From Anaerolineae bacterium (GTDB lineage Bacteria; Chloroflexota; Anaerolineae; Anaerolineales; E44-bin32): a DNA stretch of 64,000 nt. Location: assembly GCA_011174825.1 (NCBI GenBank), contig DUEZ01000078.1:27947-91946 (forward strand). The letters are read 5' to 3'. A program made the translations under genes and the position numbers. Below the pieces are notes generated by a model, which was not told the DNA's origin, made no database searches, and saw nothing but the letters and a program-made list of their open reading frames with translations. Shown here one piece after another: positions 23,645 to 62,959 of the stretch; the stretch's first letter is position 1; the number at the start of each line of letters is the position of its first letter.

Positions 23645-23698
23645 ATAAGCATTTTTAGAAGTTGTATCAATATAGAAATGGAACTCTGTTGAGAGGCT

Positions 23699-45945: not shown

Positions 45946-45952
45946 TTGACTG

Positions 45953-46452
45953 TGGCTCGACCTATAAGCCGCGTTCTGTCCGAAAGATATCTGCGGTTTA
46001 CGGGCTCACTCTTTGCCAAACCGCTAGGCTAGTTTGACGAATTTACAACAGAGCGGATCCTTCATCCCTCAGACATCGATCTGAGCGATCATCTATCTCG
46101 GCACACACGTCACCGTGAGGCTCATGCGGCCTACCCGGAGCTCAAGGAAGACGAGCAACCTCCCGTCCGTATACGGACTTCGCTCCTGCTTGGCCTTGCT
46201 CCCGATGGGGGTTGCCTGGCCGCTGACATCACTGCCAACGCCGGTGGTCTCTTACACCACCTTTTCACCCTTACCTGATCGAAGGAGATCAATGGCAAAG
46301 GAACCCTTCGCCACGACCCATAGACCAGGCGGTCCTTTTCTGTGGTCCTTTCCGCGGGTCTCCCCGCCCGGGTATTACCCGGCATCGAGCTCTGCGGAGC
46401 GCGGACTTTCCTCAGGCGGTCAAAGCCACCTGCGATCGCCCGGTCGATCCAT
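45953..46452 (-). ncRNA. rnpB: RNase P RNA, bacterial type A
   Basis: GAGGAAAGTCC, ACAGAAA, GGGTGAAAAGGTGGTGTAAGAGACCACC, GAGCAAG, AGATAGATGATCGC and ACAGAACGCGGCTTA; P1 TGGATCGACC/GGTCGAGCCA. Confidence 0.97.
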
Positions 46453-46545
46453 CAGTCGATTCCATCATACCTTCCAAATACTCCGTCGTCAACCACATTC
46501 ATCTTCTTGATTTGATGACCAATATTGAATGCATATAAACAAAAA

Positions 46546-46701
46546 CTCACCCTGAGCCTGCTTTATCCTGCCTGTCCTGAGCTCGCCGAGGGGAGCATAT
46601 CGAAGGGTCGAAGGATGCGTACTACAGTGATCCTTCGACAGGTTTTGTCCTGAGTCATGTCCTGAGCTTATCGAAGGATTGTCGAAGGGCTAAGGATGAC
46701 T
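46546..46701. repeat. Nested cluster of six 23-24 bp CCTGAG..CGAAGG elements
   Basis: Two three-level nests; removing the inserts leaves an inverted doublet (see findings). Confidence 0.85.
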
Positions 46702-46945
46702 TTCGTTCTTGGGCTTCATCGTTTTCATCGTGATCTAGTACTAAGTGTAGATTCTCGAAAATCTTGCACATTCCCACCACCTGTATTGTATTGAGAGGTT
46801 GAGTGGCAGCTCAAACACAAAGAGCCCTTTTCAACTTCAACTGAAGCCTTGTGCTCACCATTGGAGACCGCTCATCTCCAGCTCAGGCATTAACCCTCTT
46901 AACGCATACTTATGGTGCACTAACGCATTTCTAATGGTTTTCGCC

Positions 46946-46974
46946 TTGAATACATTTAATGAGCAAGCTATAAT
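46946..46974 (+). promoter_or_regulatory. Sigma70-type promoter of the FmdB-family gene
   Basis: TTGAAT-N17-TATAAT followed by AAGGAG RBS. Confidence 0.7.
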
Positions 46975-47000
46975 TCTCTTGGTAAAGGAGAACGTGAGCG

Positions 47001-47285
47001 ATGCCTGTATATACGTATCGCTGCCAAAATTGCGGTGTTCAATTCGATCGTCGTGTAACCTTTGACGACAAGCCACTCACTCGCTGTCCCGAGTGTAGTA
47101 AGGATGCCTTACGGAAGGTCTATTTACCAGTTGGGATCGTCTTCAAAGGCTCTGGCTTCTATGCCACCGACCATCGTTCTCCATCAGGTCAGCGGACGAC
47201 CAAGAAATCTGACAGCAAGCCAGAAGAAACGAAAGACAAATCCGAGGACTCACCGTCTTCCAGTGAATCCTCACGAGATGATTAA
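47001..47285 (+). CDS. FmdB family zinc-ribbon protein
   Basis: MPVYTYRCQNCG, CPEC, FKGSGFYATD and a low-complexity tail. Confidence 0.92.
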   Translation: MPVYTYRCQNCGVQFDRRVTFDDKPLTRCPECSKDALRKVYLPVGIVFKGSGFYATDHRSPSGQRTTKKSDSKPEETKDKSEDSPSSSESSRDD

Positions 47286-47305
47286 CGGATTTCACCTGAG
47301 TAATC

Positions 47306-47338
47306 AAAAAAAGAGCCGAGATACATCTCGGCTCTTTT
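47306..47338. terminator. Bidirectional intrinsic terminator
   Basis: AAAAGAGCCGAGAT-AC-ATCTCGGCTCTTTT between convergent genes. Confidence 0.9.
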
Positions 47339-47359
47339 CAATTCTAGGGTTCAATATCG

Positions 47360-47662
47360 TTACATTTGGAATCCACCCGTCGCCCGAACCACCTTGGCAC
47401 TAAAATTAATCACAAAATCAAACAATCTGCTACTGAGCTCCGCCCATTCATCCGTGTCTAAAGCCTCGCGCATCGTGTCCATCTCTTCGGCCACGAAACC
47501 GGTCAACATCTGCGGAGCTTCTCCGTAGGTCGTATACCAGGCCTCGGTTGGTTGGATTCCGAGACGCTGCATTCCTGGCACGAATTCCCGTACGAGAAAT
47601 TCGAAATATTCCTGTTCACGCCCAGGCACCATATCCCAGGTCATGAGCAACTTGACCGCCAT
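47360..47662 (-). CDS. Hypothetical protein, possibly dimeric alpha-beta barrel (NIPSNAP-like)
   Basis: Alternating beta/alpha pattern (KLLMTWD..PG...Y..F); 100 aa. Confidence 0.7.
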   Translation of the reverse strand: MAVKLLMTWDMVPGREQEYFEFLVREFVPGMQRLGIQPTEAWYTTYGEAPQMLTGFVAEEMDTMREALDTDEWAELSSRLFDFVINFSAKVVRATGGFQM

Positions 47663-47733
47663 AGATCGCCTTTCTACCTTAAATCACGATGAGGGTTACA
47701 CCACCCCCTCATGCTATTATTCAACGCTGCTTC

Positions 47734-48375
47734 CTAGGAAACAGGTTCAAGAACAACAACCTGTGTTTCCGATGAGAGTCCACCCTTCCTGATCTTTAAT
47801 GAAGGAAGGGGATCAAGCTTCGCAGTTCCCATCTCCGATAGAAAGCGTGCGACAGTTCCCAACTTCGGCCCTTCTTTGATCGTCTTATAGTACATTGGAA
47901 CAACAATCGAAGGTTCGATAAGACTGATCACTTCAGCCGCCTGAGATGGTGTCAGCGCTCCCCCACCTCCAACTGGCACCAAGGCAACATCAACCGCACC
48001 AAGGTTCTCAATCTCAGCCTGTGATGGGACATAAGATAGATTGCCGAGATGAGCTACGGTTAATCGGTTGAAATCGAATACATATAGTAAATTCGATTGG
48101 TTTTTTTTCTTCTTCCCATCCTTCGGGGTCATCAGAATCCCGATGATGAAGACACCGCCGATTTCAAACTCTCCGGGACGCTGGATGACCCTCCGCTTCC
48201 CTTTGACGGCTTTGACATGATTATGAGATGGCGTGTCATCACTCACGGTCACGATGTCGCCCCTTAATTTAACCTCCGGCAAACCCAAACTAGGATCGAA
48301 GGGATCCGTTACAACGCTCGCTAGACTCCGCTCGGTTAAGCGAAAACATGAAAGGCCATACCAAGTTATTTCCAC
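47734..48375 (-). CDS. Metallo-beta-lactamase-fold protein with degenerate metal site
   Basis: ITWYG.SCF, TDPF, PGEFEIGGV, LVPVGG and EP.IVVPM motifs; most Zn ligands altered. Confidence 0.85.
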   Translation of the reverse strand: MEITWYGLSCFRLTERSLASVVTDPFDPSLGLPEVKLRGDIVTVSDDTPSHNHVKAVKGKRRVIQRPGEFEIGGVFIIGILMTPKDGKKKKNQSNLLYVFDFNRLTVAHLGNLSYVPSQAEIENLGAVDVALVPVGGGGALTPSQAAEVISLIEPSIVVPMYYKTIKEGPKLGTVARFLSEMGTAKLDPLPSLKIRKGGLSSETQVVVLEPVS

Positions 48376-48666
48376 TCATCCTCCACAACCATAGGCGAGC
48401 GATTATACACGATCAACCCACAGAGTGCCAAAGCTTATCATCAAGCTTGGTGCTTCTTTTGAGAAGTTGCTCATTGGAGTCACGGAAAGAGATACTCGGT
48501 CAAGGTGTTGGTTTGCCCCCTCAAGCTATAAGTGATTATTATCGTGAAATATGAGCCTGAAGACACTCTCCCACATCAAACTCGGGTAATAATCATCTGC
48601 TGTTCTATTTAGGTCCGTACTAATGTATGATTTGATAAAGTTGTATCACAGGCTAAAATCAACCTA

Positions 48667-49455
48667 ATGGGAATAATCTCTCCCGAAGCGGTGCGATTGG
48701 AAATAGGTGGCGGGGTGGTAGAGGAGACCCCATCAGGGTCAACAAAATTTTTCATCCCTCCCACACCGTCGGGTTACGCGAACGCTCAAATAGATGATTA
48801 CCGGAGGCTAGCCCGTGGGAAATTCCCCTGGCGACCCCCTCTGTGTCTTTCTCTAAAGGCGCGCGCGTCTCATGTCCGCCCCCTCGGAACGCTTGGATTT
48901 GGATTCTGGAACGACCCTTTCTCATTCTCCTTCGGTCAGGGAGGAGCAACAAGAAAGTTGCCGACTGCACCTAAAGCTCTCTGGTTTTTCTATGGCTCGT
49001 ATCCGAACAATCTGCCGCTCGCTTCGAATGTGCCCGGATACGGTTGGAAAGCTGCAAGTCTAGACTCCATTGACCTACCCACGCTTTTCCTAGCCCCTCT
49101 GGCAGCATGCGCATTCATCCTTAGCAAGGTTCCCATCCTTCGAGGATGGATTATGCGAAAAGCTTTACAGCAGATCGTCGCTTACGAAAGTCTCCTCACC
49201 CCCCTGCTAAACGAATGGCATTCATACTCATTAACTTGGCTCTCAGAGGGAGCCACCTTTGAGGTTGATGGAGAGATCGTTCTCCATGCGCCTGAAGTGC
49301 CCTCCGCTCCTTTAGGATTTGTCGCCTGGATAGATAATCAATACGCCGTAGCTACCCCAGAGGATGGGTTCCACTTCGGTGTTGTGCCATTGAAGGAACC
49401 ACAATGGCTTGAAATTAGTGACCTGCAATTGAAGACGCTACCGAGTGTTGCATGA
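48667..49455 (+). CDS. Hypothetical protein, possibly ConA/GH16-like beta-sandwich
   Basis: NAQIDDY, GFGFWNDPF, WHSYSLTW...F.VDG and WIDNQY. Confidence 0.65.
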   Translation: MGIISPEAVRLEIGGGVVEETPSGSTKFFIPPTPSGYANAQIDDYRRLARGKFPWRPPLCLSLKARASHVRPLGTLGFGFWNDPFSFSFGQGGATRKLPTAPKALWFFYGSYPNNLPLASNVPGYGWKAASLDSIDLPTLFLAPLAACAFILSKVPILRGWIMRKALQQIVAYESLLTPLLNEWHSYSLTWLSEGATFEVDGEIVLHAPEVPSAPLGFVAWIDNQYAVATPEDGFHFGVVPLKEPQWLEISDLQLKTLPSVA

Positions 49456-49611
49456 CTTCGAAAATAAGAGTAACCTCGAGAACTTGTAGGGGAAATCTAA
49501 ACCCCTTCATTGCGTCCAAAAACCGCTCGGATCAGCAAAGATGATGATTCAGACAATTCTTCCCATGATCCATCTTAAAAGCGGACACTCCCTCATTCCG
49601 CGATTTGGTAC

Positions 49612-50928
49612 TTGTTGATGAGAACCGGCAGACTGACTCATATCTTCATCTTTTTGTTCGGTTTGCTCTTCATCGGCGCTCTTGTGGTTGTTGGGGCCAT
49701 CTATTATTCGTCATTAACAGCGGAGACTCCAATTCCCATACCCACAGTGGAGGTCATCTTTACTCCCACTTCGGAGAAAAGAGCCACCGTTGCATTACCT
49801 CCTAAATGGACAGAGACGCCATCTCCTATACCAACAGAAACACCCACCGTATGGTCAGAAACGGAGTCAGCTGATCTCAATTCTTCGGAGGCTTTAGCAA
49901 AGAAACAGGCAATCGGAGAGCTGCTTGGGCCCTATTTGCAGAACGTCACCACGGATTCCGTCACCATCGCATGGAGGACCGCAGGTGCAAGTCAAGGTGA
50001 AATCGTCTATGGAGGTACGAGTGAATACAACCTATCTGTCGTGGATGACATGATTGGGAAACAGCATCACGTGATACTCTCCGATCTACATCCAGATACA
50101 CATTACCATTACCGACTCATCAGTGGTGATGTGCCGCTGACCGAAGACCTGACATTCCATACGGCGCCCGGTCCTGAGAAGAAATCACTCTCCTTTGTCG
50201 TATACGGAGACACCCAAAAACGTCCTGAGATACATGATGCGATCATCGATCAAGCGCGCTCACTCACGCCCGATTTGGTGCTTCATGTCGGCGACCTGGT
50301 GAACAAGGGACGAGATGAGGCACAGTGGGACGAGTTCTTTTGGATCACAAAAGAACTCCTCGCGTATGTGCCTCTTTTCCCAACCCTCGGGAACCATGAG
50401 CTGCAAAGCGAGGATTACTTCGAACGTTTCTTCCTACCCGGCAATGAGCGCTGGTATAGCTTTTCCTATGGACCGGCATTCTTTATTTGTTTAGAAATCG
50501 ATGGATTCACGAAACTTGATGATGTTAGCGAACAATATCAGTGGTTGCAACAAACCCTGGCTAAGAATACACAGCCCTGGTTGTTTGTTTTTTTCCACAA
50601 ACCTCCCTACTCAGCTGAATACGAAGGGCAGAGCGAAGCCTATATCCGCGCTAGATTAACCCCTCTGTTTGAAGAGCATGGTGTACAACTTGTGTTTTCT
50701 GGGCACAATCATAATTACCAACGCAGTCATGTGAACGGCATAACATACATCGTCACTGGCGGAGGTGGAGGGGATCTTTCTGATCGAATTAAACAAGATG
50801 AACACCTTCTAAGGTATTTTGTGGGCTTTCATTTCGTTCTTATCGACATTGAGGGGGATAAATTGAACGCCCTTGCCTTGACACCGGAAGGTGCGATTAT
50901 CGATCGTTTCGAGTTATACCTGCCGTGA
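49612..50928 (+). CDS. Membrane-anchored purple acid phosphatase-like metallophosphoesterase with Fn3-like domain
   Basis: GPYLQ, YGD, GDLV, GNHE, H.PPY and GHNHNY motifs. Confidence 0.9.
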   Translation: MLMRTGRLTHIFIFLFGLLFIGALVVVGAIYYSSLTAETPIPIPTVEVIFTPTSEKRATVALPPKWTETPSPIPTETPTVWSETESADLNSSEALAKKQAIGELLGPYLQNVTTDSVTIAWRTAGASQGEIVYGGTSEYNLSVVDDMIGKQHHVILSDLHPDTHYHYRLISGDVPLTEDLTFHTAPGPEKKSLSFVVYGDTQKRPEIHDAIIDQARSLTPDLVLHVGDLVNKGRDEAQWDEFFWITKELLAYVPLFPTLGNHELQSEDYFERFFLPGNERWYSFSYGPAFFICLEIDGFTKLDDVSEQYQWLQQTLAKNTQPWLFVFFHKPPYSAEYEGQSEAYIRARLTPLFEEHGVQLVFSGHNHNYQRSHVNGITYIVTGGGGGDLSDRIKQDEHLLRYFVGFHFVLIDIEGDKLNALALTPEGAIIDRFELYLP

Positions 50929-51009
50929 ATGGATGTGTAATATAATCCTTCATTCGTAAATACGCTTCGGTGTGGTGGGAGACCAGGCACACCCGTCATA
51001 ATATCAGTC

Positions 51010-51035
51010 CCGACTTCGCAAGAGGTCGGCTTTTT
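51010..51035 (+). terminator. Intrinsic terminator with GCAA tetraloop
   Basis: CCGACTTC-GCAA-GAGGTCGG followed by CTTTTT. Confidence 0.8.
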
Positions 51036-51211
51036 ATTGTATTGGAATGAGAATGTAGAAGGAGAAACCGAAACGTGGAAAAGCGATCTAGAAGAAGGGT
51101 TCAATTGATGGTATAAGGTAAGCGTGGGCATCACAATCTTTCCCGAGCCCTTTTCGATTGCAGGAGATACGGCATTTCGTCGGCTTGAAATCTCAGAATA
51201 GAGAAAACAAG

Positions 51212-52105
51212 ATGACATCGAGAAAGCAAGAAGAAGCGCTTGACTACTTCACAACCCATGCGAAAGAATGGGCAAAAAAGGCGATTTCTTCAGACCGGGG
51301 CAAAGTGAATGTCATTCAGCAACGAAATCAATATGTTCTAAAGGTCTTCGAGGATCGTTCTGAAACCAGATCTGTGCTCGATGTTGGCAGTGGCACCGGT
51401 GATTTGGTGTGTGAGATTGCGAAACAAGGTGTCAGCGCTCTCGGTGTAGATTTTGCGCGGGAGATGATCGATATCGCTTTACAGAAAAAACAAGAAATGC
51501 AACTTGAAATGGCACATTTTGAATGTTGCTCCATATTTGATTGTAATTTCACAGAAAGAGAATTCGATCTTATCTCTGCCAATGGATTTATCGAGTACCT
51601 CTCCCAAGATGAAATGAGTGATTTTTTCGATCTTGTCCAAAAGATTCTCGCTCCCCGAGGCTCCTTCGTCGTCAGCTCGCGCAATCGTCTTTTTAATATC
51701 ACCTCCATGAGCCCGTTTACCAAGGATGAGCTTAAGGGCAAGGATGTGGAAGCATTGATCAATGAGGCCGCAGCGTTAGCTTCAAATGTAGATATTGCCG
51801 AATTACTGGCAATAATTCCTGCTTCGTTGCAAGAGCCCGATATCAAACTCGCAAGAACAGGGGTCGATGTAGAATCTCGCTTTCAATTCACGCCTGTTCA
51901 ATTGATGCAAATGCTAAATACTAGAGACCTCAACCCAGTTGAACTCTACCCCATCCATATACACGGCGTACCACCTACATTTAAGGGCAAACATCCGGAG
52001 GTTCATGCCTCCATCTCAAACCTATTGCAGACCCATGCGGAACAGAACACGGAATTCATACCCTTCTCTTCCACCTTCATGCTTCATGTCCAGAAAGGTG
52101 ATTGA
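51212..52105 (+). CDS. Class I SAM-dependent methyltransferase
   Basis: VLDVGSGTG, GVD, FDLI and LAPRG motifs. Confidence 0.88.
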   Translation: MTSRKQEEALDYFTTHAKEWAKKAISSDRGKVNVIQQRNQYVLKVFEDRSETRSVLDVGSGTGDLVCEIAKQGVSALGVDFAREMIDIALQKKQEMQLEMAHFECCSIFDCNFTEREFDLISANGFIEYLSQDEMSDFFDLVQKILAPRGSFVVSSRNRLFNITSMSPFTKDELKGKDVEALINEAAALASNVDIAELLAIIPASLQEPDIKLARTGVDVESRFQFTPVQLMQMLNTRDLNPVELYPIHIHGVPPTFKGKHPEVHASISNLLQTHAEQNTEFIPFSSTFMLHVQKGD

Positions 52106-52198
52106 CGAGATTAGAACTCAATGCGAGATATCGGTGAGGTATTTAACTGATGGGTGAAAGATAGGCATAAAAAGCTGCTACAAGATCGGTTTCTTAAC

Positions 52199-52321
52199 AG
52201 TACAGTCATCCTTCGACAGGCTCAGGATGACTGTACTCTTGGTTTCAATCCACATATTACGCTGATGCGCAGACGAAAGCCTGCGACTACATAAATCGGG
52301 GCGGGGTCACCCCGCCCCTAC
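52199..52321. repeat. Mixed REP cluster
   Basis: AGTACAGTCATCCTTCGACAGGCTCAGGATGACTGTACT hairpin, CGCAGACGAAAGCCTGCGACTAC and GGGGCGGGGTCACCCCGCCCCTAC. Confidence 0.85.
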
Positions 52322-52636
52322 TCTCTTTTTGGAAATCTACGACATTCGATTGGCGGCTACGATGCATTTACCGATGAGTATGGTGAATTTCTCAACGGGG
52401 ACGGGGCAGTTGTGGAGAAACTCGCTTCAGAATATTCCGGAAAGCTTTGTTTCGTTTGAGTGTACAGCTCAGACTTAGCTCTAATTTCTCAGGTTGAGGG
52501 TACTTTGGGTTGATTGAATTCACATTCCTCGAAATATAGACTCAAGTTGCTCAATATTCTTGGCATTTCGAGGGACAGAGATGCCGGGATTGTACAGAAC
52601 GAATTCCAATCAGATGTTATTTGGAAGGGCACAAGA

Positions 52637-53035
52637 ATGAAGAAAGTCGTGTTATTTGTAGGTTTAATAATACTTACTTGTGCCCTGGTACCTATCGGTA
52701 GCGCACTACTCGTGACGAATCCATTAGCAAATGTGGCTGAAGATTATTTTCTCCTCATATCACAAGACAAAGTAAGCGAAGCATATCAATTGACATCCAG
52801 AGATGTTCAAGCTGAGGTCAGTTTACTAGATTTTAGAGAAATGTGTCGAGAATCCCCTTTGGAGGAGTACGTGGATGTTTCGTGGGATTATCGTGGGATA
52901 GAAGGGAAATGGGGCGAACTGCAAGGCATGTTGGAAACAGGTGATGCCAGTTATCCAGAGGTATTTGTATTCGTAAATGTAGAACTGGTGCAAGAAAATG
53001 GGAAATGGAAGATCTATTCTGTTGATTTATGGTGA
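52637..53035 (+). CDS. Small secreted or membrane-anchored protein, NTF2-like fold likely
   Basis: MKK plus hydrophobic segment, AY.L.S and ELVQENGKWKI C-terminus. Confidence 0.7.
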   Translation: MKKVVLFVGLIILTCALVPIGSALLVTNPLANVAEDYFLLISQDKVSEAYQLTSRDVQAEVSLLDFREMCRESPLEEYVDVSWDYRGIEGKWGELQGMLETGDASYPEVFVFVNVELVQENGKWKIYSVDLW

Positions 53036-53183
53036 GATCTACAAGGTCGAATTGTTTCGTCGTCCTGAAGAAATAGATGAATTGATTCCAATAAGATGTA
53101 GGCCCAGCTTGTAATTTTTCCATTCGCTATTCATAAACTCCTAAATTAACAACAGTTCATACCCCACACCTCCCCCATCTTTC

Positions 53184-53212
53184 TTGACGCCATCCAGCGC
53201 CACGAGTACAAT
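53184..53212 (+). promoter_or_regulatory. tRNA-Phe promoter
   Basis: TTGACG-N17-TACAAT. Confidence 0.85.
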
Positions 53213-53224
53213 CCACCGCAGCGA

Positions 53225-53297
53225 GCCGAGATAGCTCAGTTGGTAGAGCACTTGACTGAAAATCAAGGTGTCGCCAGTTCGATTCTGGCTCTCGGCA
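53225..53297 (+). tRNA. tRNA-Phe(GAA)
   Basis: Acceptor GCCGAGA/TCTCGGC, anticodon arm CTTGA-CTGAAAA-TCAAG, TTCGA T loop. Confidence 0.96.
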
Positions 53298-53309
53298 TAG
53301 CTAAAGGGT

Positions 53310-53340
53310 AAACCACCCCTGTCCATGGGGTGGTTTTCTT
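53310..53340. terminator. Bidirectional terminator
   Basis: AAACCACCCC-N7-GGGGTGGTTTT between tRNA-Phe and the methyltransferase gene. Confidence 0.8.
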
Positions 53341-53363
53341 GTTTCATTAAGATATTACCCCGA

Positions 53364-54476
53364 TTAACCTGAGGAGTTCTTTGATGCCCGAAACGCCTGT
53401 CTTAATTGATCGATCGGGCGCAGATCTCCTTCTTCTGCCTCGTAGTACCAATGAAGCCAACCGTTGCACGGGCTGCCCTTCATGAGATGCTTTCCCGCCT
53501 GATGGATCGATCCCTCAAAACCATCCAAGATCAGGTTGCCATCCGGTCTGACGCGCGCAGATTGAGACGGATCGCCTTTGAAATACAGGGTTTGACCTGG
53601 TTGGATGAAGCCGTTTTCTACCAAGGTGCTAAAGGGGACACGAGGCTCTCGTCTTCGTCGATCACCCACATCGAAAAGCGTATCGTCATAAGGCTCAACT
53701 TGGAGAGAGTCGATCCGCGTCTGGGCAATTTCCACGTAGTCTTTATTCTGCTCGATACCTATCCAATTGCGGTGTAGCCGCTTTGCCACCGCGCCTGTGG
53801 TGCCGGTGCCAAAAAATGGATCGAGCACGACATCGCCTGGATCACTCGAGGCAAGGATCACGCGGTAAAGGAGCGCTTCAGGCTTTTGAGTCGAGTGCGC
53901 TTTACGCCCCTCAATCTTGATCCGTTCATCACCTGCGCAAATCGGTATCAACCAATCACTGCGCATTTGCTTGCCATCATTGAGCGCCTTCATGGCGTGG
54001 TGATTGAATGTATATTTGGCGCCCTTCGATTTACTTGCCCAGATTATCGTCTCGTGTGCGTTGGTGAACCGCACACCACGGAAATTAGGCATCGGATTGG
54101 TTTTAATCCAGAGCACGTCGTTGAGAATCCAATAGTCCAGATCCTGCATGATCGTTCCGAGCCGGAAGATGTTGTGGTAACTCCCGATCACCCAAAGCGT
54201 ACCGTCGTCCTTGAGAACCCGCCGACTCTCACTCAACCAAGCGTGGCTGAATTGATCGTACTCTTCGAAGCTACCAAACCGATCCCATGCGTCATCGACG
54301 GCGTCTACTTTGGTCATATTCGGTCGCCAAAGTTCCTGCTTGAGTTGAAGATTGTACGGTGGATCGGCAAAGATCAGGTTGACACTCTTCTCAGGCAAGG
54401 TCTTCAGGATCTCGACGCAATCACCTTGAAGGATGTTATTAATAGGAAGCTCAAGCTTCTCGTCGTTATGCTGCAT
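53364..54476 (-). CDS. Orphan beta-class DNA adenine methyltransferase, CcrM/M.HinfI-like
   Basis: [55 protein letters not shown] and a C-terminal GSIHQ..CNGW..W domain. Confidence 0.92.
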
Positions 54477-54544
54477 TTTCAAACCCGTTCAAGCCCCTCA
54501 AGGCATCCAGTCTACACGCTTCACGACCGATCAGCAACCGATTC

Positions 54545-54573
54545 TTGACATTATCCTTTGATCACGGTATGCT
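54545..54573 (+). promoter_or_regulatory. tRNA-Gly/Cys promoter
   Basis: TTGACA-N17-TATGCT. Confidence 0.8.
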
Positions 54574-54586
54574 TCGGTCGCTAAAA

Positions 54587-54658
54587 GCGGGTGTAGTTCA
54601 GTGGTAGAACGTCTGCTTGCCAAGCAGAAAGTCGTGGGTTCGAATCCCATCGCCCGCT
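54587..54658 (+). tRNA. tRNA-Gly(GCC)
   Basis: Acceptor GCGGGTG/CGCCCGC, anticodon arm TCTGC-TTGCCAA-GCAGA. Confidence 0.96.
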
Positions 54659-54726
54659 CAGATCACGATCGCCTATCGCTTATCGGAACCAACGGTAGGC
54701 GGCAGGCGATTGATGGTCTAACCCTT

Positions 54727-54798
<72 letters not shown>

Positions 54799-55024
54799 CT
54801 TCATTACTAATTCATAAAGAAAAGCGACTTGGGCACGCTTGTGAGCAGAAACTCAGTCGCTTTTTCGCTTAAACCACATGAATCAATCGGCTATCATTGT
54901 CCAATATCAATCTCTACCTTTTTCCTTCATAATATTCCGATAATCACGCTGCTCTTGTGTTACGGATCAAGAACAGCAACCCGTGGAGTTCACCCTCCAA
55001 CCTTCCCGGGATCGTCCAAAGGAT

Positions 55025-56173
55025 TTACGGTATTTCACTCCCGCCTAATGTCACTTCGACATCGAACCGATCTCCATTTCTTACCACCCCCAGGACGACT
55101 TGATCTCCGGGTTGATGTTTAATGAGTTGGTTGATATAGGGATGCTCAGGGTCAAACGCTTGATCATCCATTGAGATCAGAATGTCACCACGACGGAGCC
55201 CACTCTGATCCGCTGGTCCCTCAGGGGTCACCTCGGAAAGGTAAACGCCGTATTCAACAGGGAGTCGATAACGACTGGCAATCCCCGGGGTGATCCACTG
55301 CCATCGCACACCCAGGAAAGGTCGTGACACAAAACCCTTTTCGATGAGTTGATCAGCTACCGCCTGAGCCGAATTACTAGGAATTGCAAATCCCAACCCC
55401 TCAGCGATCGCTCCCCCGGCCTCACTCCCACGGACGATTAACGTGTTGATCCCGATCATTTGACCAGCAAGGTTTACCAGCGGACCTCCAGAATTTCCTG
55501 TATTGATCGCTGCGTCGGTCTGGATCAGATCTTCCATGAGAAACCCGCTGCTGGTCTCGATCGACCGTCCTATGGCGCTGATCACCCCAACGGTAACCGT
55601 ATTCATAAAACTGCCGAGCGGAGACCCAATAGCGATCACAGTTTCGCCTGAGTCCAAGACGTTCGAGTTTCCCCATGTGATGACTTCTGGCATCTCACCC
55701 TCGGCTTGAATAACTGCAAGATCTGCATAAGGGTCGACCCCAACAAGATCAGCTGGGAGGATGGTGCCATCTGCCAGGATGACCTCCAACCGTTCTGCCC
55801 CCTCCACCACATGATTGTTGGTCACGATATGTCCATCAAACGAAATGATCGCACCGGAGCCTGAGCTGGATCTCTCGATAACACCACCGAAGAAAGTAAC
55901 CCGCGGACTTAAATGACTGATCACTGTGACCACCGCTGGTTCGACACGTGCCACAACTTCCGTAATGGCCGTGGTGATTTCCAACGAAATGGAACTTGGC
56001 TCAAGAGCCTCTTGTGTGGGACTACTGATGGGTTGGGTTGGCGAGGCGCTTCGTTGGGCTGAATAAACAATGGTCCCACCAACTACCCCTCCAATCACGC
56101 CAGATATGAGCATGACCAAGATCAATGTCAGGACATACCTGTTCCATCGTACCGAGGATAAACTCTCTTTCAT
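55025..56173 (-). CDS. htrA: HtrA/DegP family serine protease with one PDZ domain
   Basis: TM anchor, TNNHVV, DLAV, QTDAAINTGNSGGPL and a PDZ domain; AAGGAGG RBS. Confidence 0.93.
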   Translation of the reverse strand: MKESLSSVRWNRYVLTLILVMLISGVIGGVVGGTIVYSAQRSASPTQPISSPTQEALEPSSISLEITTAITEVVARVEPAVVTVISHLSPRVTFFGGVIERSSSGSGAIISFDGHIVTNNHVVEGAERLEVILADGTILPADLVGVDPYADLAVIQAEGEMPEVITWGNSNVLDSGETVIAIGSPLGSFMNTVTVGVISAIGRSIETSSGFLMEDLIQTDAAINTGNSGGPLVNLAGQMIGINTLIVRGSEAGGAIAEGLGFAIPSNSAQAVADQLIEKGFVSRPFLGVRWQWITPGIASRYRLPVEYGVYLSEVTPEGPADQSGLRRGDILISMDDQAFDPEHPYINQLIKHQPGDQVVLGVVRNGDRFDVEVTLGGSEIP

Positions 56174-56296
56174 GCCGCTCCCCTCCTTAATAAAACGAAT
56201 ACTCAATCAATCCTTTCCACCTTGTCGATAGAACAACATAAAAGGAGCCAGGAGCCTCGTTCTCTTACCGGCTCCTGGTCTCGTTGATTTAGGCTC

Positions 56297-56743
56297 TTAT
56301 TTGGCTTTTATGGTGATCGTCTTTGGCTTGACAACCTCAACCTTCGGTAACGTAAGCGTAAGGATGCCGTTTTCGAACTCGGCTTTTGCTTCATCAGCGT
56401 TCACCGACGCGGGGAGTAAAATCGATCGGGAGAAACTTCCCATTCTGCGTTCACGTATATGGTATCGAAGACCTTCTTCCTCTCGTTCTTCCTGGGTCTC
56501 ACCCCGGATATTCAAGGTGTCGCCTGTGATTGAGATGTGAATATCCTCGGGTTTCATCCCCGGTGTGGTTGCCATAACGATCACATCGTCATCCGTCTGA
56601 TAGACATCAATCGGAACGCCCCATTCTTCGGCGAAATCGCCAAAAAATGGCGCGTCAAAGAAAGTCCTGTCCATCATCCGATCGAGCATATTACGCATTC
56701 TGCGTATCTCGCTTCGGGGCCCCCAACGTGTTATTTCGTCCAT
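56297..56743 (-). CDS. Hsp20/alpha-crystallin small heat-shock protein
   Basis: PG...EDI, ERRMGSFSR and AEFENGILTLTLPK motifs. Confidence 0.95.
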   Translation of the reverse strand: MDEITRWGPRSEIRRMRNMLDRMMDRTFFDAPFFGDFAEEWGVPIDVYQTDDDVIVMATTPGMKPEDIHISITGDTLNIRGETQEEREEEGLRYHIRERRMGSFSRSILLPASVNADEAKAEFENGILTLTLPKVEVVKPKTITIKAK

Positions 56744-57005
56744 CTCCCAACCTCCGATGTAGATTCTGGGTCCTAACTTGTTCTGGAATTGATCATACCT
56801 GATTTGCATTAGACGTTCATCAGAACAACCTTTATTTCATGGAGCGTTCGACTGTGCGCTTGCTCGGAGGAGGAAATACCATCGGATGCTCATTCACAAC
56901 CCAAAGAACACCGCTTCAGGCTTTAGCTAATGCTTTACTGAAAACAAAAGATGTTAATAACGAGGGTGCTTCCTTGTAACTCCCCCAGAATCGATTTATT
57001 TATGA

Positions 57006-57048
57006 TGACAGGCAGTGAGAACCTATAAAGGTTCTTCCCTGCCTGTCA
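57006..57048. terminator. Long hairpin downstream of xth
   Basis: TGACAGGCAG..AGAACCT-ATAA-AGGTTCT..CTGCCTGTCA. Confidence 0.55.
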
Positions 57049-57118
57049 CGTACACTGATATTTTACGATTTATATGAAATCTTGATTCGACAAATAGCGT
57101 GGAGCAACTCCCAATAGA

Positions 57119-57892
57119 TTATCCATCAGCAAGCGTAAGGCTCACCGGGCAATGGTCCGAGCCCAGAACATCGGGGTGAATATCTGCCGCTGTAACACGG
57201 TCCTGCAGACCGGGTGAGATAAAGAAATAATCAATACGCCATCCCACATTCCGATCTCGTGCCCCTCCCCAATAGGCCCACCAACTGTAAGCGTCCTTTT
57301 GATCAGGATGTAAGAACCTGTAAGTGTCGATGTAACCCTCCTCAACAACCTGATCAATCCAAGCACGCTCAATGGGAAGGAATCCGGTCGAATTCATATT
57401 GTCCTTGGGTCGGGCAAGATCAATTTCCCGATGCGCCGTGTTCACATCACCACAGAATACAACGGGCCTCCCCGAACTCCGGTACTGATTGCAGCGTTCC
57501 AAGAAGGCTTCTTTATAGGCCATCTTGAAGGGTACCCGGCTGTGGTCTCGTGCTCCATTGGGGAAGTATGCCGTTAGAAGGATAAACTCCCCATAATCCG
57601 CAATGATCGTACGACCTTCTCGATCATACTCTTCAATTCCCAAACCGATCTCAACAGATACCGGTTCCACCCTTGAATACAGCGCCACACCGCTATATCC
57701 CTTACGTTCGGCAAAAGCCCAGTAGGTATGATAATCCGAAGGATCCTTCAATTCATCATCTAACTGGCTGGGGTTTGCTTTGGTTTCTTGTACACAGAGG
57801 ATATCGGGGCGAGATGCCCTCAACCACTTAAGAAAGCCCTTCCTCTGAGCTGCCCTTATGCCGTTCACATTCCATGAAAGAAGATTTAGCAT
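57119..57892 (-). CDS. xth: Exodeoxyribonuclease III
   Basis: SWNVNGIRA, QETK, GYSGVA, GDVN, GWRIDY and SDHCP motifs. Confidence 0.97.
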   Translation of the reverse strand: MLNLLSWNVNGIRAAQRKGFLKWLRASRPDILCVQETKANPSQLDDELKDPSDYHTYWAFAERKGYSGVALYSRVEPVSVEIGLGIEEYDREGRTIIADYGEFILLTAYFPNGARDHSRVPFKMAYKEAFLERCNQYRSSGRPVVFCGDVNTAHREIDLARPKDNMNSTGFLPIERAWIDQVVEEGYIDTYRFLHPDQKDAYSWWAYWGGARDRNVGWRIDYFFISPGLQDRVTAADIHPDVLGSDHCPVSLTLADG

Positions 57893-57899
57893 GATCAGA

Positions 57900-58520
57900 T
57901 TAACCTTCGCGTGTAGTTTCTCGATCCCTGAAGGGAATTTCAAGGCTCTCGTCTCGGATTTCACATTGTAGAACCTCATATCGCTTAAGTTGTTCAATCT
58001 GAGGTGGCATGATACGGATGATTGGCCTTGTCTTTTTAATCAACGCAATTGCTTCCTCGAGTGCCATGCCCTGATGTATGAAGTAAGCAGCGGCCATCGT
58101 AGGAGCACGACCAATCCCGCCCGCGCAATGAATATAGACCTTCCCCCCATCCGAGAGAAGTTTATCTATAAACTCAACCCCCCGCTCCAACTGATTCAGG
58201 GTCGGCGCTTGATCATCAACCGTGGGCAGATGGCAATAATGATTGAAGGTTAATCCGTGAAGTGCATCATCATGTTCTGTGCGCATATTGATGCTTCCGG
58301 TTATCCCCCATCGCTCGAGTGCTTGTTTCCCAGATTTACGATACTGTGGTCCGACGTAGAGCACGGGTGTAATCTGACAATACCGTTGAAAGGGAATACC
58401 CCTGATGAAATCTATACCTCGGACATATAGCCAAAGCAATGTTGTGGCAAGGCCTTGATTCCGCAATCGATATGCGATAATTTCCAGCCCCATTTGGGGA
58501 TATTGAAAGAGCTTCCGCAT
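57900..58520 (-). CDS. Dual-specificity (CX5R) protein phosphatase family protein
   Basis: VYIHCAGGIGR; GGAGGAG RBS before MRKLFQ. Confidence 0.9.
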   Translation of the reverse strand: MRKLFQYPQMGLEIIAYRLRNQGLATTLLWLYVRGIDFIRGIPFQRYCQITPVLYVGPQYRKSGKQALERWGITGSINMRTEHDDALHGLTFNHYCHLPTVDDQAPTLNQLERGVEFIDKLLSDGGKVYIHCAGGIGRAPTMAAAYFIHQGMALEEAIALIKKTRPIIRIMPPQIEQLKRYEVLQCEIRDESLEIPFRDRETTREG

Positions 58521-58734
58521 TGTTCTCCTCCAAGCCAAAGAGCATACCATAGTTATCCACTCAACACAGAGTTCTACACTATGGCATTTTGATGAGACTG
58601 ATTTCCCATGAGTTTCATACTCAAAGAAAAAGAGAGATCCATCCATATGTGCTGATCGCATTCAGAGGATTTTTACAGCTACTTCAGCACTTTAATCCCC
58701 AGATATTAGGCCTGATATATACTTGATCAGCAGT

Positions 58735-60990
58735 TTATAAATTTGAGTACCCGCTTGTGGGGCGCCGGAGCAACCGCATTCCGTTAAGAGTGACCAATAA
58801 AGATGTGCCCATATCAGCGAGCACTGCCATCCACATCGTCCCGAAACCTAAGAGGACCAGGATCAAGAACGCCAATTTGGTTAGCAAGCTCAAACCCACA
58901 TTCGTACGGATCGTGCGCATGGTCGCGCGGCTTAGTCTGAGAAGAAAAGGAAGCTGCCGTAGATCTTCACTCATCAGCGTAATGTCAGAGGTTTCCATCG
59001 CTTGAGCCGTACCCCCCAAAGCGCCCCCGATGGCAATACCAATATCAGCCGTTGCCAATGCAGGTGCGTCATTGATGCCATCTCCGACCATTGCTACATG
59101 ACCGTACTCCTTCTGTAAGTGATTAACTGCTACAACTTTCTCCTCCGGCATCAATTCGCTGCGTACCTCAGTAACACCTACTTGAGCACCGATTGTTTCG
59201 GCTGCAGAGCGGTTATCCCCCGTAAGCATAACGAGGGTTTTGATACCGATATGTTTAAGGATCTCAATCGCCTCACGGCTTGTGGCTCGGATGGTATCGG
59301 CTAGAGCAATGGCGCCTTGGAATTCGCCATCTTTCTCGATCATGACGGTGGTGTAACTATTTAAGGCGTCCTCTTGTGCCTGAAGGCAATCGTCCTCAGG
59401 GTGAAAGATAAAACGATCAAAGTGATTGTGACTTCCAATCGTCACTTGCTGACCATCCACTCGACCCATAACGCCATGACCGACCATCGCTCTTACACCC
59501 TCAGCCGCAGGGTATTTTAATCCCAGATTTCTCTTGTTTGCTTCGTGGATGATGGCATCTGCTACAGGGTGCTCACTGTGTGCTTCAACCGCGCTGGCCA
59601 AAGCTAACAAATCATCACATTCCTCACATAGAGGAGATCCGTAGGGTGAGTGGGATTTTAAATCAGGCATCCGACAATTCACGGAACGAACGGAAACAAC
59701 AGACGGTCTACCTTCTGTGAGCGTGCCGGTTTTGTCAAACGCTATTGCCTCAACCCGACTAAGTGCCTCGAGATGGGCCCCGCCCTTAACCAGGATCCCA
59801 TTCCTTGCAGCATTGCTGATCGCACTGATGATGCTGACAGGTGTGCTTATGACGAGCGCACATGGGCATGCAACAACCAATAACGCCAGACCGCGGTAGA
59901 GCCAACCAAAGGAGCCCGACGCAGGATTGAGAAAGGGTTGATCAAAGAAAAGGGGAGGAATGACTGCTACAACGGCAGCAAGGAGGACGACGATTGGGGT
60001 GTAATACCTGGCAAATCGATCTACAAATCTCTGAGCAGGTGCCTTCTTCTCTTGGGCTTCCTCGACCATCTTGACCAAACGGCTGATGGTGTTGTTCGCA
60101 GCAATGCGGGTTACCTCGATCGTCAGTGCTCCCTCACCATTGATGCTGCTTGCCAGGACTTCGGATCCCACGATTTTTTCAACCAGTCTGCCCTCACCAG
60201 TGATAGGGGCTTGATTGACCGATGAGGCCCCCTTAACTACGCGACCATCCATGGGTATTCGTTCGCCTGGCTTGACCAAGATCAAATTCCCGACCTGCAA
60301 AGTCTCCACGGAAACCAGGATTTCACGAACGTGGCCATCATGCTCATGTACGATCGTTGCTCGCTGAGGGACAACTTCCACCAGACTCTTGATTGAAGTG
60401 CGAGCTTTCTCGGTCACATACCCTTCTAACGCCTCTCCGAAGGCGAATAACACAATCACCATCCCCGCTTCGGTGTACGCGCCGATGAGCAAAGCCCCGA
60501 TGGCAGCGATGGTCATAAGGACATTGATGTTGATATCAAACCCTCTTCGTAGCGACCGCCAGGCGCTGCGAGCGATTGGGAAACCCGCAGTTATGTAGGC
60601 TGCAATGGACGCAAGATCAATGATGATGTGGTGTTGACCTAAGATCTCGCTAAAGATCACGCCCGGGAGGATCAATACCGCTCCGAGGATAGCTAAGCGT
60701 GTATCTAGGCTCCTCCACATATAATGGAAAAAACCTGTCGGCTTATGTGGTTCCTGCAATCCAATCGTCTTATCTCCCTGCTCAACGATGTTGTAACCCA
60801 ATTTTTCTACTCGCGTGATGACATCCCTATGTTGTATTGGTCCTACGATACGTAATCGACCCGTGAAAGGGTTAAACTCACAAGATCGCACGCCTTCCAT
60901 CGAGCTGACCTCGCCTTCGATCTCGCTCACATCACAAGCACAATCGGCGCCTGTTAGGGAAAGTGAGAATTCGTTTTCCGAACCTTCCAT
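58735..60990 (-). CDS. Heavy-metal P1B ATPase (ZntA/CadA-like)
   Basis: N-terminal HMA domain, TGE, CPC, DKTGT, SEHP, GDGINDAP, and TM Lys/Asp (TK..., LADMG). Confidence 0.93.
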   Translation of the reverse strand: MEGSENEFSLSLTGADCACDVSEIEGEVSSMEGVRSCEFNPFTGRLRIVGPIQHRDVITRVEKLGYNIVEQGDKTIGLQEPHKPTGFFHYMWRSLDTRLAILGAVLILPGVIFSEILGQHHIIIDLASIAAYITAGFPIARSAWRSLRRGFDININVLMTIAAIGALLIGAYTEAGMVIVLFAFGEALEGYVTEKARTSIKSLVEVVPQRATIVHEHDGHVREILVSVETLQVGNLILVKPGERIPMDGRVVKGASSVNQAPITGEGRLVEKIVGSEVLASSINGEGALTIEVTRIAANNTISRLVKMVEEAQEKKAPAQRFVDRFARYYTPIVVLLAAVVAVIPPLFFDQPFLNPASGSFGWLYRGLALLVVACPCALVISTPVSIISAISNAARNGILVKGGAHLEALSRVEAIAFDKTGTLTEGRPSVVSVRSVNCRMPDLKSHSPYGSPLCEECDDLLALASAVEAHSEHPVADAIIHEANKRNLGLKYPAAEGVRAMVGHGVMGRVDGQQVTIGSHNHFDRFIFHPEDDCLQAQEDALNSYTTVMIEKDGEFQGAIALADTIRATSREAIEILKHIGIKTLVMLTGDNRSAAETIGAQVGVTEVRSELMPEEKVVAVNHLQKEYGHVAMVGDGINDAPALATADIGIAIGGALGGTAQAMETSDITLMSEDLRQLPFLLRLSRATMRTIRTNVGLSLLTKLAFLILVLLGFGTMWMAVLADMGTSLLVTLNGMRLLRRPTSGYSNL

Positions 60991-61120
60991 CGTGTCTCCT
61001 AAACTTCAATAAACCAGAATGACCCTTTCATGTCGCTATTATAACAAATCGGACAATATTATACCAATTTGCTCGTTGAATTTCTGTGATGTTGTTCACA
61101 TTAAGTGGACTTCATGAGTA

Positions 61121-61208
61121 TCAACGGCGGCCCTTCGGCATTGCTCAGGACGAGCGTGGGAGCCGCCTCTACTCTTAAGAATAGTAAGCCGGGCTCCCAC
61201 GCCCGGCT
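61121..61208. repeat. REP doublet downstream of RAYT, carrying a 24-bp insert
   Basis: Near-direct repeat of 61795-61857. Confidence 0.85.
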
Positions 61209-61268
61209 GAGTTTCGGTAGGTTGAATTATCCAGTTTGTAAGCAATCGACAATCATCCATCTAGATAT

Positions 61269-61778
61269 TCACTCAAACCACCTTTTGTATTTTGAGAATA
61301 GCTCAATGAGAAACTCATCACCCTCCCTCGTCCGCCACTCATCAATATTTGAGAATTCAAACGGCTCGAGTGGATCATGTACTTCACCTGCACGCCATGG
61401 GTTGAAGAGTGTATAGGCCACTTTCTGCCAATACATCTCCTCGTCTCGAATGACGACATCCCATGGATTACCCTCCCAAACCTTTCTTTTCTTCTCAAAA
61501 CCTAACTGATTGTTTACTAGTGTGGCTGTGTAAGAATGTACTGCGTGTAATACCTGAGAAATGGTTTATAAGTTGCCAATACTGAGCACCGTATGATAGT
61601 GATCATGCAAAACACAATAGGCATCTAATTTGAACGCAAACGCTTCTTCATAGTGCTTCCACTGATCAACGATAATTTTTGCCAAACGACGATCAGAAAA
61701 AATTGGTCTCCGTTTGTGGGTGGCACTTGTAATGAAATAGCATTGATCGGGGACAATAATGCGTCTACTTCTAATCAT
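61269..61778 (-). pseudogene. REP-associated tyrosine transposase (RAYT, HUH Y1) with in-frame TAA
   Basis: YFITSAT..R.PIF, AYCVLHDHYH, TAA at 61566-61568, then same-frame ...KVWEG...VIRD...AYTLFNPWRAG...SN; 170 codons in total. Confidence 0.9.
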
Positions 61779-61794
61779 TGGATTTCAGATTGAT

Positions 61795-61857
61795 CAACGG
61801 CGGCGTGGGAGCCGCCTCTGCTCTTAAGAATAATAGGCCGGGCGTGGAAGCCCGGCC
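61795..61857. repeat. REP doublet upstream of RAYT
   Basis: GGCGGC-GTGGGA-GCCGCC and GCCGGGC-GTGGAA-GCCCGGC separated by a spacer containing TCTTAAGA. Confidence 0.85.
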
Positions 61858-61936
61858 AAATCCCTGCCGATATTCGTCCAATCTGCCCCGAAAAATGTGG
61901 TTTCAGGAGCATCAACGATAAAGTAAAGCCAAAAGA

Positions 61937-62959
61937 TCAACTCGCTTCGGCTTCCATCTCCCTGGTATATCGCCCATCACGCGCAGCGCCATTGCACTTT
62001 GCACGGTGGTAGAGGGCAGCTTGTCCGGCAGCCATCTTTGCGGGATCACCCTGCCAGGCATCTAAGGCTGTTTCTTGCAGCGCCCTGCCATAGGAGAAAC
62101 TTAATTGCCACGGATGATCGCCCATTACATTCATGGCATTTAATCGCTCTGTAGCTTCGAGATAAGTCATCCCTCCAGATAAGAAGACAACACCCGGCAT
62201 GGAGGGTGGGACAGTATTGCGCAGGGAGTTTACTGTAATCTCAGCTATCTCTTCAACATCAGCCTGCCTGGGATGATCCTTACCTGGTAGAACCATGTTC
62301 GTCTTCAGCAGGAGACCATCGCTCGCCACACGGTGCTTATGAAGCGCCGTGAATAGGCCGGACCAAGTTCGCTCCGAAACCTGACCACAGCGGGAAATAT
62401 CATGATCACCATCCAGCAATACTTCTGGTTCGACGATCGGAACGAGGCCAGCTTCCTGACAAAGCGCAGCGTATCTTGCTAACGCATAGGCGTTCGCGTC
62501 GATACAAGCACCGGTTGGTATATCCTCCCCAATGGTGATAACAGCTCGCCATTTCGCGAAACGCGCACCCAGCTCATAATATTCAATAAGCCGTTCACGC
62601 AATCCATCCAAACCCTCGGTGATTTTTTCTCCCGGGAATCCTGCCAAAGCCTTAGCCCCTTTATCAACCTTGATCCCAGGAATGATTCCCTTTTCGGATA
62701 GCACCTCAACAAAGGGTGTACCTTCCGCAGTGGCATGTCGAATGGTTTCGTCAAACAGAATCACACCACTAATGTGTCGCTCCAGGTTTGGGGTGGTAAA
62801 AAGCATCTCACGATAAGACCGCCGCGCCTCTTCCGTCGACTCGACGTTGATCCGATCGAAACGTTTCTTGATCGTGCCGAGGCTTTCGTCCGCTGCTAAA
62901 ATGCCTTTCCCAGGGGAGACTAGATCTAAGGCAGTTTTTACTAATTCGCTTTGTGTCAT
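61937..62959 (-). CDS. Class I fructose-bisphosphate aldolase
   Basis: KGILAADES, GIKVDKG, FAKWR, VPIVEPEV, FLSGG and FSYGRALQ motifs. Confidence 0.96.
   Translation of the reverse strand: MTQSELVKTALDLVSPGKGILAADESLGTIKKRFDRINVESTEEARRSYREMLFTTPNLERHISGVILFDETIRHATAEGTPFVEVLSEKGIIPGIKVDKGAKALAGFPGEKITEGLDGLRERLIEYYELGARFAKWRAVITIGEDIPTGACIDANAYALARYAALCQEAGLVPIVEPEVLLDGDHDISRCGQVSERTWSGLFTALHKHRVASDGLLLKTNMVLPGKDHPRQADVEEIAEITVNSLRNTVPPSMPGVVFLSGGMTYLEATERLNAMNVMGDHPWQLSFSYGRALQETALDAWQGDPAKMAAGQAALYHRAKCNGAARDGRYTREMEAEAS

Follow-up and report, generated by a model that had tools for sequence, protein, structure and literature searches.

The spread of gene-less repeats of some twenty bases has been a standing question since the cyanobacterial SDRs. 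The SDR1-8 repeats of the Nostocaceae, attributed to Elhai et al. 2008, are reportedly 21-27 nt long with precise insertion into other short palindromes, and we know of no transposase for them. The available text of two articles gives SDR5 as inserting between bases 3 and 4 of HIP1 (PMC4390886) and SDRs as reported only in Nostocaceae (PMC5861425). Ssn proteins are ~94-aa single-domain GIY-YIG nucleases (cd10448) whose genes are flanked by NTS/SRM hairpin repeats, themselves numbering in the hundreds, and a Ssn homologue occurs in 81% of genomes with >200 SRMs (Chenal et al. 2025, PMC11893778); for Anaerolinea thermophila the count is 24 SRMs against 22.3 expected (PMC11893778, supplement file 7). 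According to the available text of that article, SsnA binds the hairpin only as ssDNA and in one orientation, and cleaves a few nucleotides upstream; the NTS-ssnA-NTS layout is called IS-like, with cleavage and an effect on transformation shown and mobility only hypothesised. REP hairpins are insertion hot spots of IS elements (Tobes & Pareja 2006, PMC1525189), and in Bradyrhizobium REP loops reach up to 27 bp and have self-complementary inner parts, with REPs also lying inside other palindromes (Di Nocera et al. 2013, PMC3733652), in both cases as far as the available text of these articles goes.

Our preferred reading of the locus described here, to which we give a probability of about 0.7, is that 24 nt in one flank of a RAYT REPtron are a mini-hairpin inserted at the junction between the loop and the 3' stem of REP-A, and that this insertion is old, has been inherited and has been amplified as a REPIN in related Anaerolineae. 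The SDRs are the nearest precedent, being likewise 20-odd-nt repeats that lie precisely inside other short palindromic repeats with empty counterparts present, as far as the available text on them shows. However, the present unit belongs to another phylum and presumably has another sequence, comes with a candidate enzyme, and has been amplified second-hand by REPINs.

In the window, the whole 64,000-nt stretch of DNA that was analysed, a RAYT (REP-associated tyrosine transposase) pseudogene lies on the minus strand (61269-61778; NF047646 96.9 bits, cut-off 80; PF01797 34.9 bits) and has one in-frame TAA (61566-61568). Each of its flanks is a REP-A/REP-B pair, GTAG-tagged hairpins standing tag to tag, with REP-A following the consensus GTAGAGGCGG-CTCCCAYG-CCGCC (GGCGG-CTCCCAYG-CCGCC) and REP-B following GCCGGGC-loop-CCCGGC. 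The left REP-A (61121-61167, minus strand) reads, in plus-strand order, TCAACGGCGGC (61121-61131; the outer flank and one stem arm, GGCGGC on the plus strand and the 3' arm on the minus strand), CCTTCGGCATTGCTCAGGACGAGC (61132-61155; the 24-nt unit, GCTCGTC-CTGAGC-AATGC-CGAAGG on the minus strand) and GTGGGAGCCGCC (61156-61167; the loop and the other stem arm, the loop being GTGGGA on the plus strand and TCCCAC on the minus strand). A spacer (61168-61187) that holds the back-to-back GTAG-type tags of REP-A and REP-B, tags of the kind given in the available text of PMC3733652, leads to the left REP-B on the plus strand (61188-61207; GCCGGGC-TCCCACG-CCCGGC), whose loop is the same as that of REP-A. 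On the right stand an empty REP-A on the minus strand (61794-61816), in which the TCAACGGCGGC and GTGGGAGCCGCC flanks are joined directly and the 24 nt are absent, and a REP-B on the plus strand (61836-61857). Direct reading of both sites bears out the starting claim of the sequence-only reading, that the left flank equals the right flank plus 24 nt, although the right one begins at 61794 and not, one base off, at 61795.

The unit has the REP loop (CTCCCAC) on one side and the 3' stem arm on the other, and the placing of its junction leaves 2 nt (G, C) ambiguous, the GC ambiguity that had been claimed. Identity between the two flanks is 85% over 54 nt, the differences being the 24 nt, a few substitutions and the inverted REP-B loop. 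This loop is flipped between the flanks with the stems kept (TCCCACG at 61188-61207 against GTGGAAG at 61836-61857; TCCCAC against GTGGAA), so that only the left pair can be folded into a single long hairpin (-28.1 kcal/mol, z = -4.6); the empty REP-A form on its own folds at -7.6 kcal/mol (z = -2.7). Logan contigs from two sequencing runs (X1, X2) span the site with the 24 nt and none spans it without them, contigs being a kind of record that cannot reveal rare excision. A search of the whole window against Rfam at gathering thresholds returned only RNase P and four tRNAs, and an E-value scan of 46400-62000 gave no match to the mini-hairpin unit or the REPs.

Judged by its sequence features, the host element is an ordinary GTAG-REP/RAYT system, having a RAYT gene as well as tagged hairpin doublets: the GTAG-tagged hairpins are short and multi-copy, form inverted doublets (CAGTAGAGGCGG..CCCGGTCTACTG) and flank the RAYT. 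In this it resembles the REP/REPIN-RAYT systems, which have GTAG hairpins, inverted doublets and a REP-flanked RAYT in the available text of Bertels & Rainey 2011 (PMC3116915) and PMC3733652. As distinct from the REPs of this RAYT, the 24-nt unit belongs to a separate family, has hosts of its own and is linked to another gene, and the available portions of the same two articles hold no description of a foreign mini-hairpin carried in a REP loop and co-amplified with it. The unit also differs, as a gene-less hairpin of 24 nt, from the IS elements found in REPs, which are kilobase-sized and have transposase genes in the available text of PMC1525189.

We compared the orthologous intergenic region in four genomes of the same genus, those being the genome of the window (G000), G004, G002 and G001. 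In G004, whose flanking genes are 77-84% identical, the RAYT is absent and a single REP pair is found, which is filled and has 5 differences in the 24 nt. In G002 the RAYT is likewise absent, and the degenerate unit in its REP-A (L003 1290-1345) separates the 5' stem from the loop, whereas in G000 and G004 the unit separates the loop from the 3' stem, a difference suggesting that this hairpin was hit a second time, independently. The more distant G001 (~67-69% identity) has an intact RAYT orthologue, 171 aa long and 67% identical, in which K takes the place of the G000 stop, and an empty REP-A on both sides of it; a partial duplicate of the RAYT 5' end with a REP is also present there (L004 960-2048). 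The loss of the RAYT in G004 and G002, with a single REP pair left at the same intergenic site (L002 1780-2140; L003 1180-1600), looks like recombination between the flanking direct REP pairs.

Across 151 genomes sampled from the order, perfect empty REP-A was found in G429 (23 copies), G000 (8), G031 (3), G339 (3), G026 (2) and G385 (1), with the filled REP-A pattern only in G000 (4); the five genomes other than G000 belong to four families and none has a filled copy. Since the empty form is phylogenetically wider, the 24 nt are to be read as an insertion and not as a deletion from the right flank, and on this comparison of sequences the empty right-hand REP represents the ancestral form. The filled state is common to G000 and G004, so the insertion predates their split, and the two flanks are old paralogues and not the before-and-after pair of one insertion that they had been taken for. 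On our preferred reading the mini-hairpin entered the loop/3'-stem junction of REP-A before the G000/G004 split, after which the loop-expanded REP was inherited and, in related Anaerolineae, amplified as a REPIN, with the unit hitch-hiking on RAYT/REPIN.

The number of filled copies bears on this polarity. A curated table of G000 holds 14 empty and 12 filled REP-A copies, with three further filled copies that are nested or degenerate, and a strict stem test returned 12 empty A-type, 25 empty B-type and 8 single-unit filled copies, all of the A-type; filled REP-A thus stand at 12-15 against 12-14 empty. Using a pattern of REP loop plus unit and one genome per species, we found 72 filled loci elsewhere, in ~14 MAGs nearly all labelled Anaerolineae or Chloroflexota, a single MAG accounting for ~22 of the loci as judged by eye. 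In 54 the loop is followed by one 23-24-nt unit and then the 3' stem, perfect GGCGG..CCGCC stems being kept in 45 of these; the other 18 are further nested or otherwise different, and the REP-B partner and CAGCAGA..TCTGCTG tags are visible in most of the filled rows. One match in a contig labelled Lachnospiraceae (L130) fits the search pattern, but no unit follows, and it was discarded.

Such abundance is what would be expected if filled were the normal state of the REP family and the right REP a secondary precise deletion, a history that also draws on the filled state shared with G004 at the window locus and on the intact condition of the filled REPINs in other Anaerolineae MAGs. The sequence-only reading had itself named filling as the norm among other REP copies as the finding that would overturn it, and about half of the G000 copies are indeed filled, yet the polarity is still that of an insertion. 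We consider the deletion very improbable, given the empty REP-A in the five further genomes and the empty REPs on both sides of the G001 RAYT. In addition, all 25 copies of REP-B, an inverted partner that shares the loop, are short, and the filled stems in G000 are decayed (perfect CCGCC kept in 3 of 12 filled against 10 of 14 empty REP-A), which fits old relics better than a maintained norm.

The uniformity of the filled copies weighs against our preferred reading, an old insertion that was later multiplied. In all filled REP-A of G000 the unit occupies one junction (CTCCCAYG^CCGCC) and points one way, and no copy of REP-B is filled, although its loop sequence is the same. Given this, very few insertions probably gave rise to most of the filled REPs, and the window locus alone says little about target choice. 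The unit rides along in the filled REP, which forms a REPIN sublineage that has been inherited and amplified. A REP loop with foreign cargo can still propagate as a REPIN, which bears on how REPIN populations are defined and counted.

The exact 24-mer is single-copy in both the window and the genome, and a search of the window with up to 3 mismatches found no further copy. The earlier statement that it is the same unit as that of the nests in the window holds at family level, by way of the common core GTCCTGAGC-N4-5-CGAAGG, but fails at the level of near-identical copies. The unit is a mini-hairpin of 23-24 nt, CC-TGAG-C(N4-5)C-GAA-GG. C-NN-GTC forms its 5' arm and CCTGAG/CGAAGG its stem, in which tandem G.A pairs occur; around the loop, C+N4-5, the core folds as CC-T-GA-G / C-GA-A-GG. 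The stem covaries, with T-A in 154 and C-G in 23 cases against T-G in 2 and C-A in 4. We dropped a reading of the stem and its tandem G.A pairs as a K-turn or a hammerhead-like motif, because it has neither the 3-nt bulge nor the core residues. In the 3.85-Mb genome we counted 154 strict cores (CTGAGC-N3-5-CGAAGG), whereas five mononucleotide shuffles gave 0-2 and a reversed-pattern control 0+3.

Cores in G000 are found in simple hairpins, in self-nests and at the centres of three unrelated hairpin repeat families. The simple hairpins have variable stems (gtcatcCTGAGC..GGatgac, gcaccCTGAGC..GGgtgc) and often form inverted doublets; the window has an un-nested member of the family on the minus strand (52200-52236) with the long stem GTACAGTCATCC..GGATGACTGTAC. 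The three host families, REP-A, the family-2 double hairpin and GATT..CGCAATGACA-type hairpins, each have empty counterparts, in agreement with the earlier proposal that the unit sits in unrelated hairpins, and the 75 copies of family 2 in the genome include ~30 that are empty, 17 with one unit and 6 with a double nest.

In a sample of 301 genomes from the phylum, 259 have at least one core and 43 have at least 30, with controls at 0-7 per strand and five unpublished genomes (G211, G310, G077, G183 and G265; 1-6 cores each) counted only in the denominators. The largest counts in this sample are those of G122 (641), G327 (608), G178 (287) and G214 (257). A search of IMG/VR with GTCCTGAGC-N4-CGAAGGR gave at least 129 viral or proviral contigs (L139-L267) of varied GC context, some of the units standing in high-GC surroundings and some in hairpins with CCGTTC..GAACGG stems, and given the cores in these contigs the family probably reaches past Chloroflexota. 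No description of the unit was found in the literature searched by core 16-mers and peptide read-outs, a body of text that leaves out most subscription journals.

Nesting of units within units was examined next to the RNase P RNA gene (45949-46451, minus strand) and genome-wide. About 95 nt from this gene the window has a doublet of two outer hairpins (46546-46700), the first with two further units inside and the second, in the opposite orientation, with a double nest. Deletion of a core together with 7 nt restores an outer core in 22 of 153 cores, against 0-1 in off-diagonal frames. Nests that restore the strict outer core number 37 (inserts of 23 nt in 25 and of 24 nt in 8), a tally of copies and not of events, since a single amplified composite lies behind many of them. 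Inner and outer loops are identical in only one of the 37 and differ in the other 36, so nesting is not local duplication, which upholds the claim that local slippage is not at work. Junctions are ambiguous by 3-4 nt in 11 of the 37 and free of microhomology in 17, and the junction bases (..CACG^CC, ..TCTG^GG, CCTG^AGC, GAGC^CTG, CTG^TCG) share no clear target word. G000 also has arrays in which 4-6 units follow each other head to tail every 23-24 nt (C85:11346-11440, C72:6251-6350), the core variant of the C72 array ending in CGAAGC.

Comparison of related genomes shows that single units come and go. All 67 core sites of G004 were checked and 34 have syntenic flanks in G000, where 11 host hairpins could be aligned by eye: four are filled in G004 only (L033, L060, L061 and L063:2503), three in G000 only (L044, L055 and L064) and four in both, the window locus among these last. 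In at least ten further cases, four filled REP-A among them, the whole host repeat is missing from G000. Between orthologous hairpins of G000, G004 and G002 the difference is exactly one unit and runs in both directions. The L033 hairpin is empty in G000, has its unit after CTGAGCCTG in G004 and has a unit elsewhere in G002, in the opposite relative orientation, and since position and orientation differ, the G004 and G002 units represent two independent hits; the window REP-A shows the same pattern of differing states across G000/G004, G002 and G001. As for outgroups at L063 and L044, G001 has a different insert there and G002 is without the whole repeat cluster. In the clean orthologous cases (L033 and L063) there is neither target duplication nor junction homology, and the frame of the insert, C-N3-GTC-core-N, places 7 nt ahead of the core and 1 nt behind it. 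The mini-hairpin family is mobile, and it enters the centres of hairpins in either orientation and without target duplication; on the mechanism we propose, it would land in the single-stranded centres of extruded hairpins.

Units might also be copied into loops with no dedicated enzyme, by template switching during replication or repair. The 11 nests with 3-4-nt junction ambiguity would fit this, as would an internally repetitive unit (YTGTC twice), a 5' arm of variable length (6-7 nt), the head-to-tail arrays (C85:11346-11415, C72:6251-6323) and the existence of some high-copy genomes without both candidate enzymes, RAYT-type transposase and small nuclease. We nevertheless regard template switching as unlikely, as microhomology is absent from 17 of the 37 nests and from the clean L033 and L063 sites, and as loops differ between inner and outer units in nearly all nests. 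The core is moreover conserved across five families and the viral contigs while its stems vary, which points to recognition by a protein, and the hairpins bracket a nuclease gene far above the density expectation.

The absence of target duplication and the single-stranded hairpin centres that serve as targets could also reflect a Y1 HUH transposase, either the RAYT or an IS200/IS605 TnpA, that excises the unit as ssDNA and pastes it into ssDNA loops in a peel-and-paste-like manner. The unit is in fact found in the repeats that flank both RAYT genes of the genome. The second of these, a RAYT-like gene at C83:53917-54481 (region C83:53783-54638, L284), is intact with a 184-aa frame and stands between two direct copies of a 76-nt double-hairpin repeat of family 2, both with an identical unit at the junction of their two hairpins. 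However, matches to PF01797 are missing from 16 of the 43 genomes with at least 30 cores, including G122, G178 and G214, and the domain was likewise not found in G169, G200, G074 and G084 of the 301-genome sample, and the Y1-rich G271 and G303 (14 matches each) have only 5 cores each. Overall PF01797 occurs in 27 of the 43 core-rich genomes and in 106 of the 258 others, by a hand tally a weak contrast. No conserved target tetranucleotide was seen at the junctions, and both unit orientations are interleaved along the complete G004 chromosome (from an informal look at replication-strand bias, with the origin not located). On these phyletic grounds, the distribution of PF01797 against core counts, we rejected a Y1 transposase as the driver of the unit and hold that it is quite unlikely to be responsible.

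We then considered a small GIY-YIG nuclease. The gene at C73:14467-14808 in G000 encodes 114 aa with a PF01541 match of 61.1 bits over residues 4-75 and no other domain; NCBIfam gave no match for the protein, and we take it to resemble the UPF0213/COG2827 type more than cd10448. It stands between two doublets of CTGAGC/CGAAGG hairpins and is absent at the orthologous site of G004. Homologues occur in 82 of the 301 genomes, being found in 29 of the 43 with at least 30 cores against 53 of the 258 others (a hand tally over related genomes that are not independent). At the 12 best homologue loci a core lies within ~120 nt of the gene in 8 and on both sides in 6-7, the two-sided cores typically forming an inverted pair with long stems; the core-flanked loci come from five families of the phylum (f1, f55, f44, f39 and f75). 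In other families of the phylum (L291-L296, L287) the two bracketing hairpins differ compensatorily, with CC-TGAGC..CGAA-GG against G-CTGAGC..CGAAG-C or GG-TGAGC..CGAA-CC, and both keep CCGTTC..GAACGG outer stems. The other 4 of these 12 loci, from order-level relatives, have no adjacent core, a homologue at E<=1e-5 is missing from 14 of the 43 high-copy genomes, and the GIY-YIG genes seen in G327 (608 cores) and G200 (110 cores) are all UvrC-sized. The link between nuclease and unit is correlative.

As in the Ssn/SRM systems, to the extent covered by the available text of PMC11893778, a small single-domain GIY-YIG gene is bracketed by a hairpin repeat of 20-50 nt with tens to hundreds of scattered copies, the repeat is oriented with a conserved GTC just upstream of the palindrome, and enzyme and repeat are associated across distant lineages, though incompletely (here in the 29 of 43 genomes given above). 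The published SRM motif, however, fails on the unit, with 11 occurrences in G000 against 15-32 in shuffles and 0 on the core, so the family was not filed as a member of the SRMs, and the pair is best regarded, from sequence comparison, as a variant akin to Ssn/SRM, an assignment of which cd10448 membership is no part. Unlike the cleavage described for SsnA in that text, a few nucleotides upstream of the hairpin, the insertion points here are inside loops or between two hairpins, and unlike in the available text of the Ssn report, movement of the bare hairpin is shown here by nesting and by orthologous presence and absence.

Mobilisation of the unit may depend on a small single-domain nuclease of the Ssn kind, a candidate that we put forward tentatively and rate at somewhat under even odds. 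Such a nuclease would bind the mini-hairpin in ssDNA and nick it ~6-7 nt upstream, which would set the 5' arm of 6-7 nt, and head-to-tail arrays such as those of C85 and C72, with their 23-24-nt period, would be cut into unit-length ssDNA. GIY-YIG enzymes hydrolyse DNA, and we know of no joining activity among them, so the insertion step is one without demonstrated chemistry; we infer both the enzyme and this chemistry, and joining into loops might fall to host joining or repair synthesis. A more speculative and on balance doubtful extension would have two ssDNA hairpin systems stacked on each other, the unit being excised by the Ssn-like nuclease, colonising loops and being multiplied by RAYT/REPIN as a hyper-parasite. 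If these proposals are right, few mobile DNAs known would be as small as the unit, transposition of Ssn-type hairpin repeats would have its first evidence, and a concrete enzyme would be indicated for the very small mobile repeats, a class so far without explanation. The question can be tested at the bench, since clean filled and empty sites are available in this genome and among its relatives, within a species as well as between species, together with a unit of defined length and a candidate nuclease whose gene the hairpins bracket.

Four small GIY-YIG genes are present in G000, each flanked by a different hairpin family, so that several nuclease-repeat pairs coexist: C73:14222-14860 (L280) with the CTGAGC/CGAAGG hairpins, C42:5493-5711 (L281) with GTCATTGCGAG..CGAAGCAATC, C63:29273-29491 (L282, with an internal TAG) with GTCATTCCGAGG..GGAATCCC, and C21:49275-49490 (L283) with GGCACCAAGGCAC-type octamer palindromes. 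In Chloroflexota MAGs, hairpins of the unit family are a frequent source of spurious short ORFs and of assembly breaks. The window also has palindromic arrays of GGCAC(C/T)NNGG-type octamers at 1118-1215 and 23560-23645, and the same repeat is found just upstream of the C21 GIY-YIG gene.
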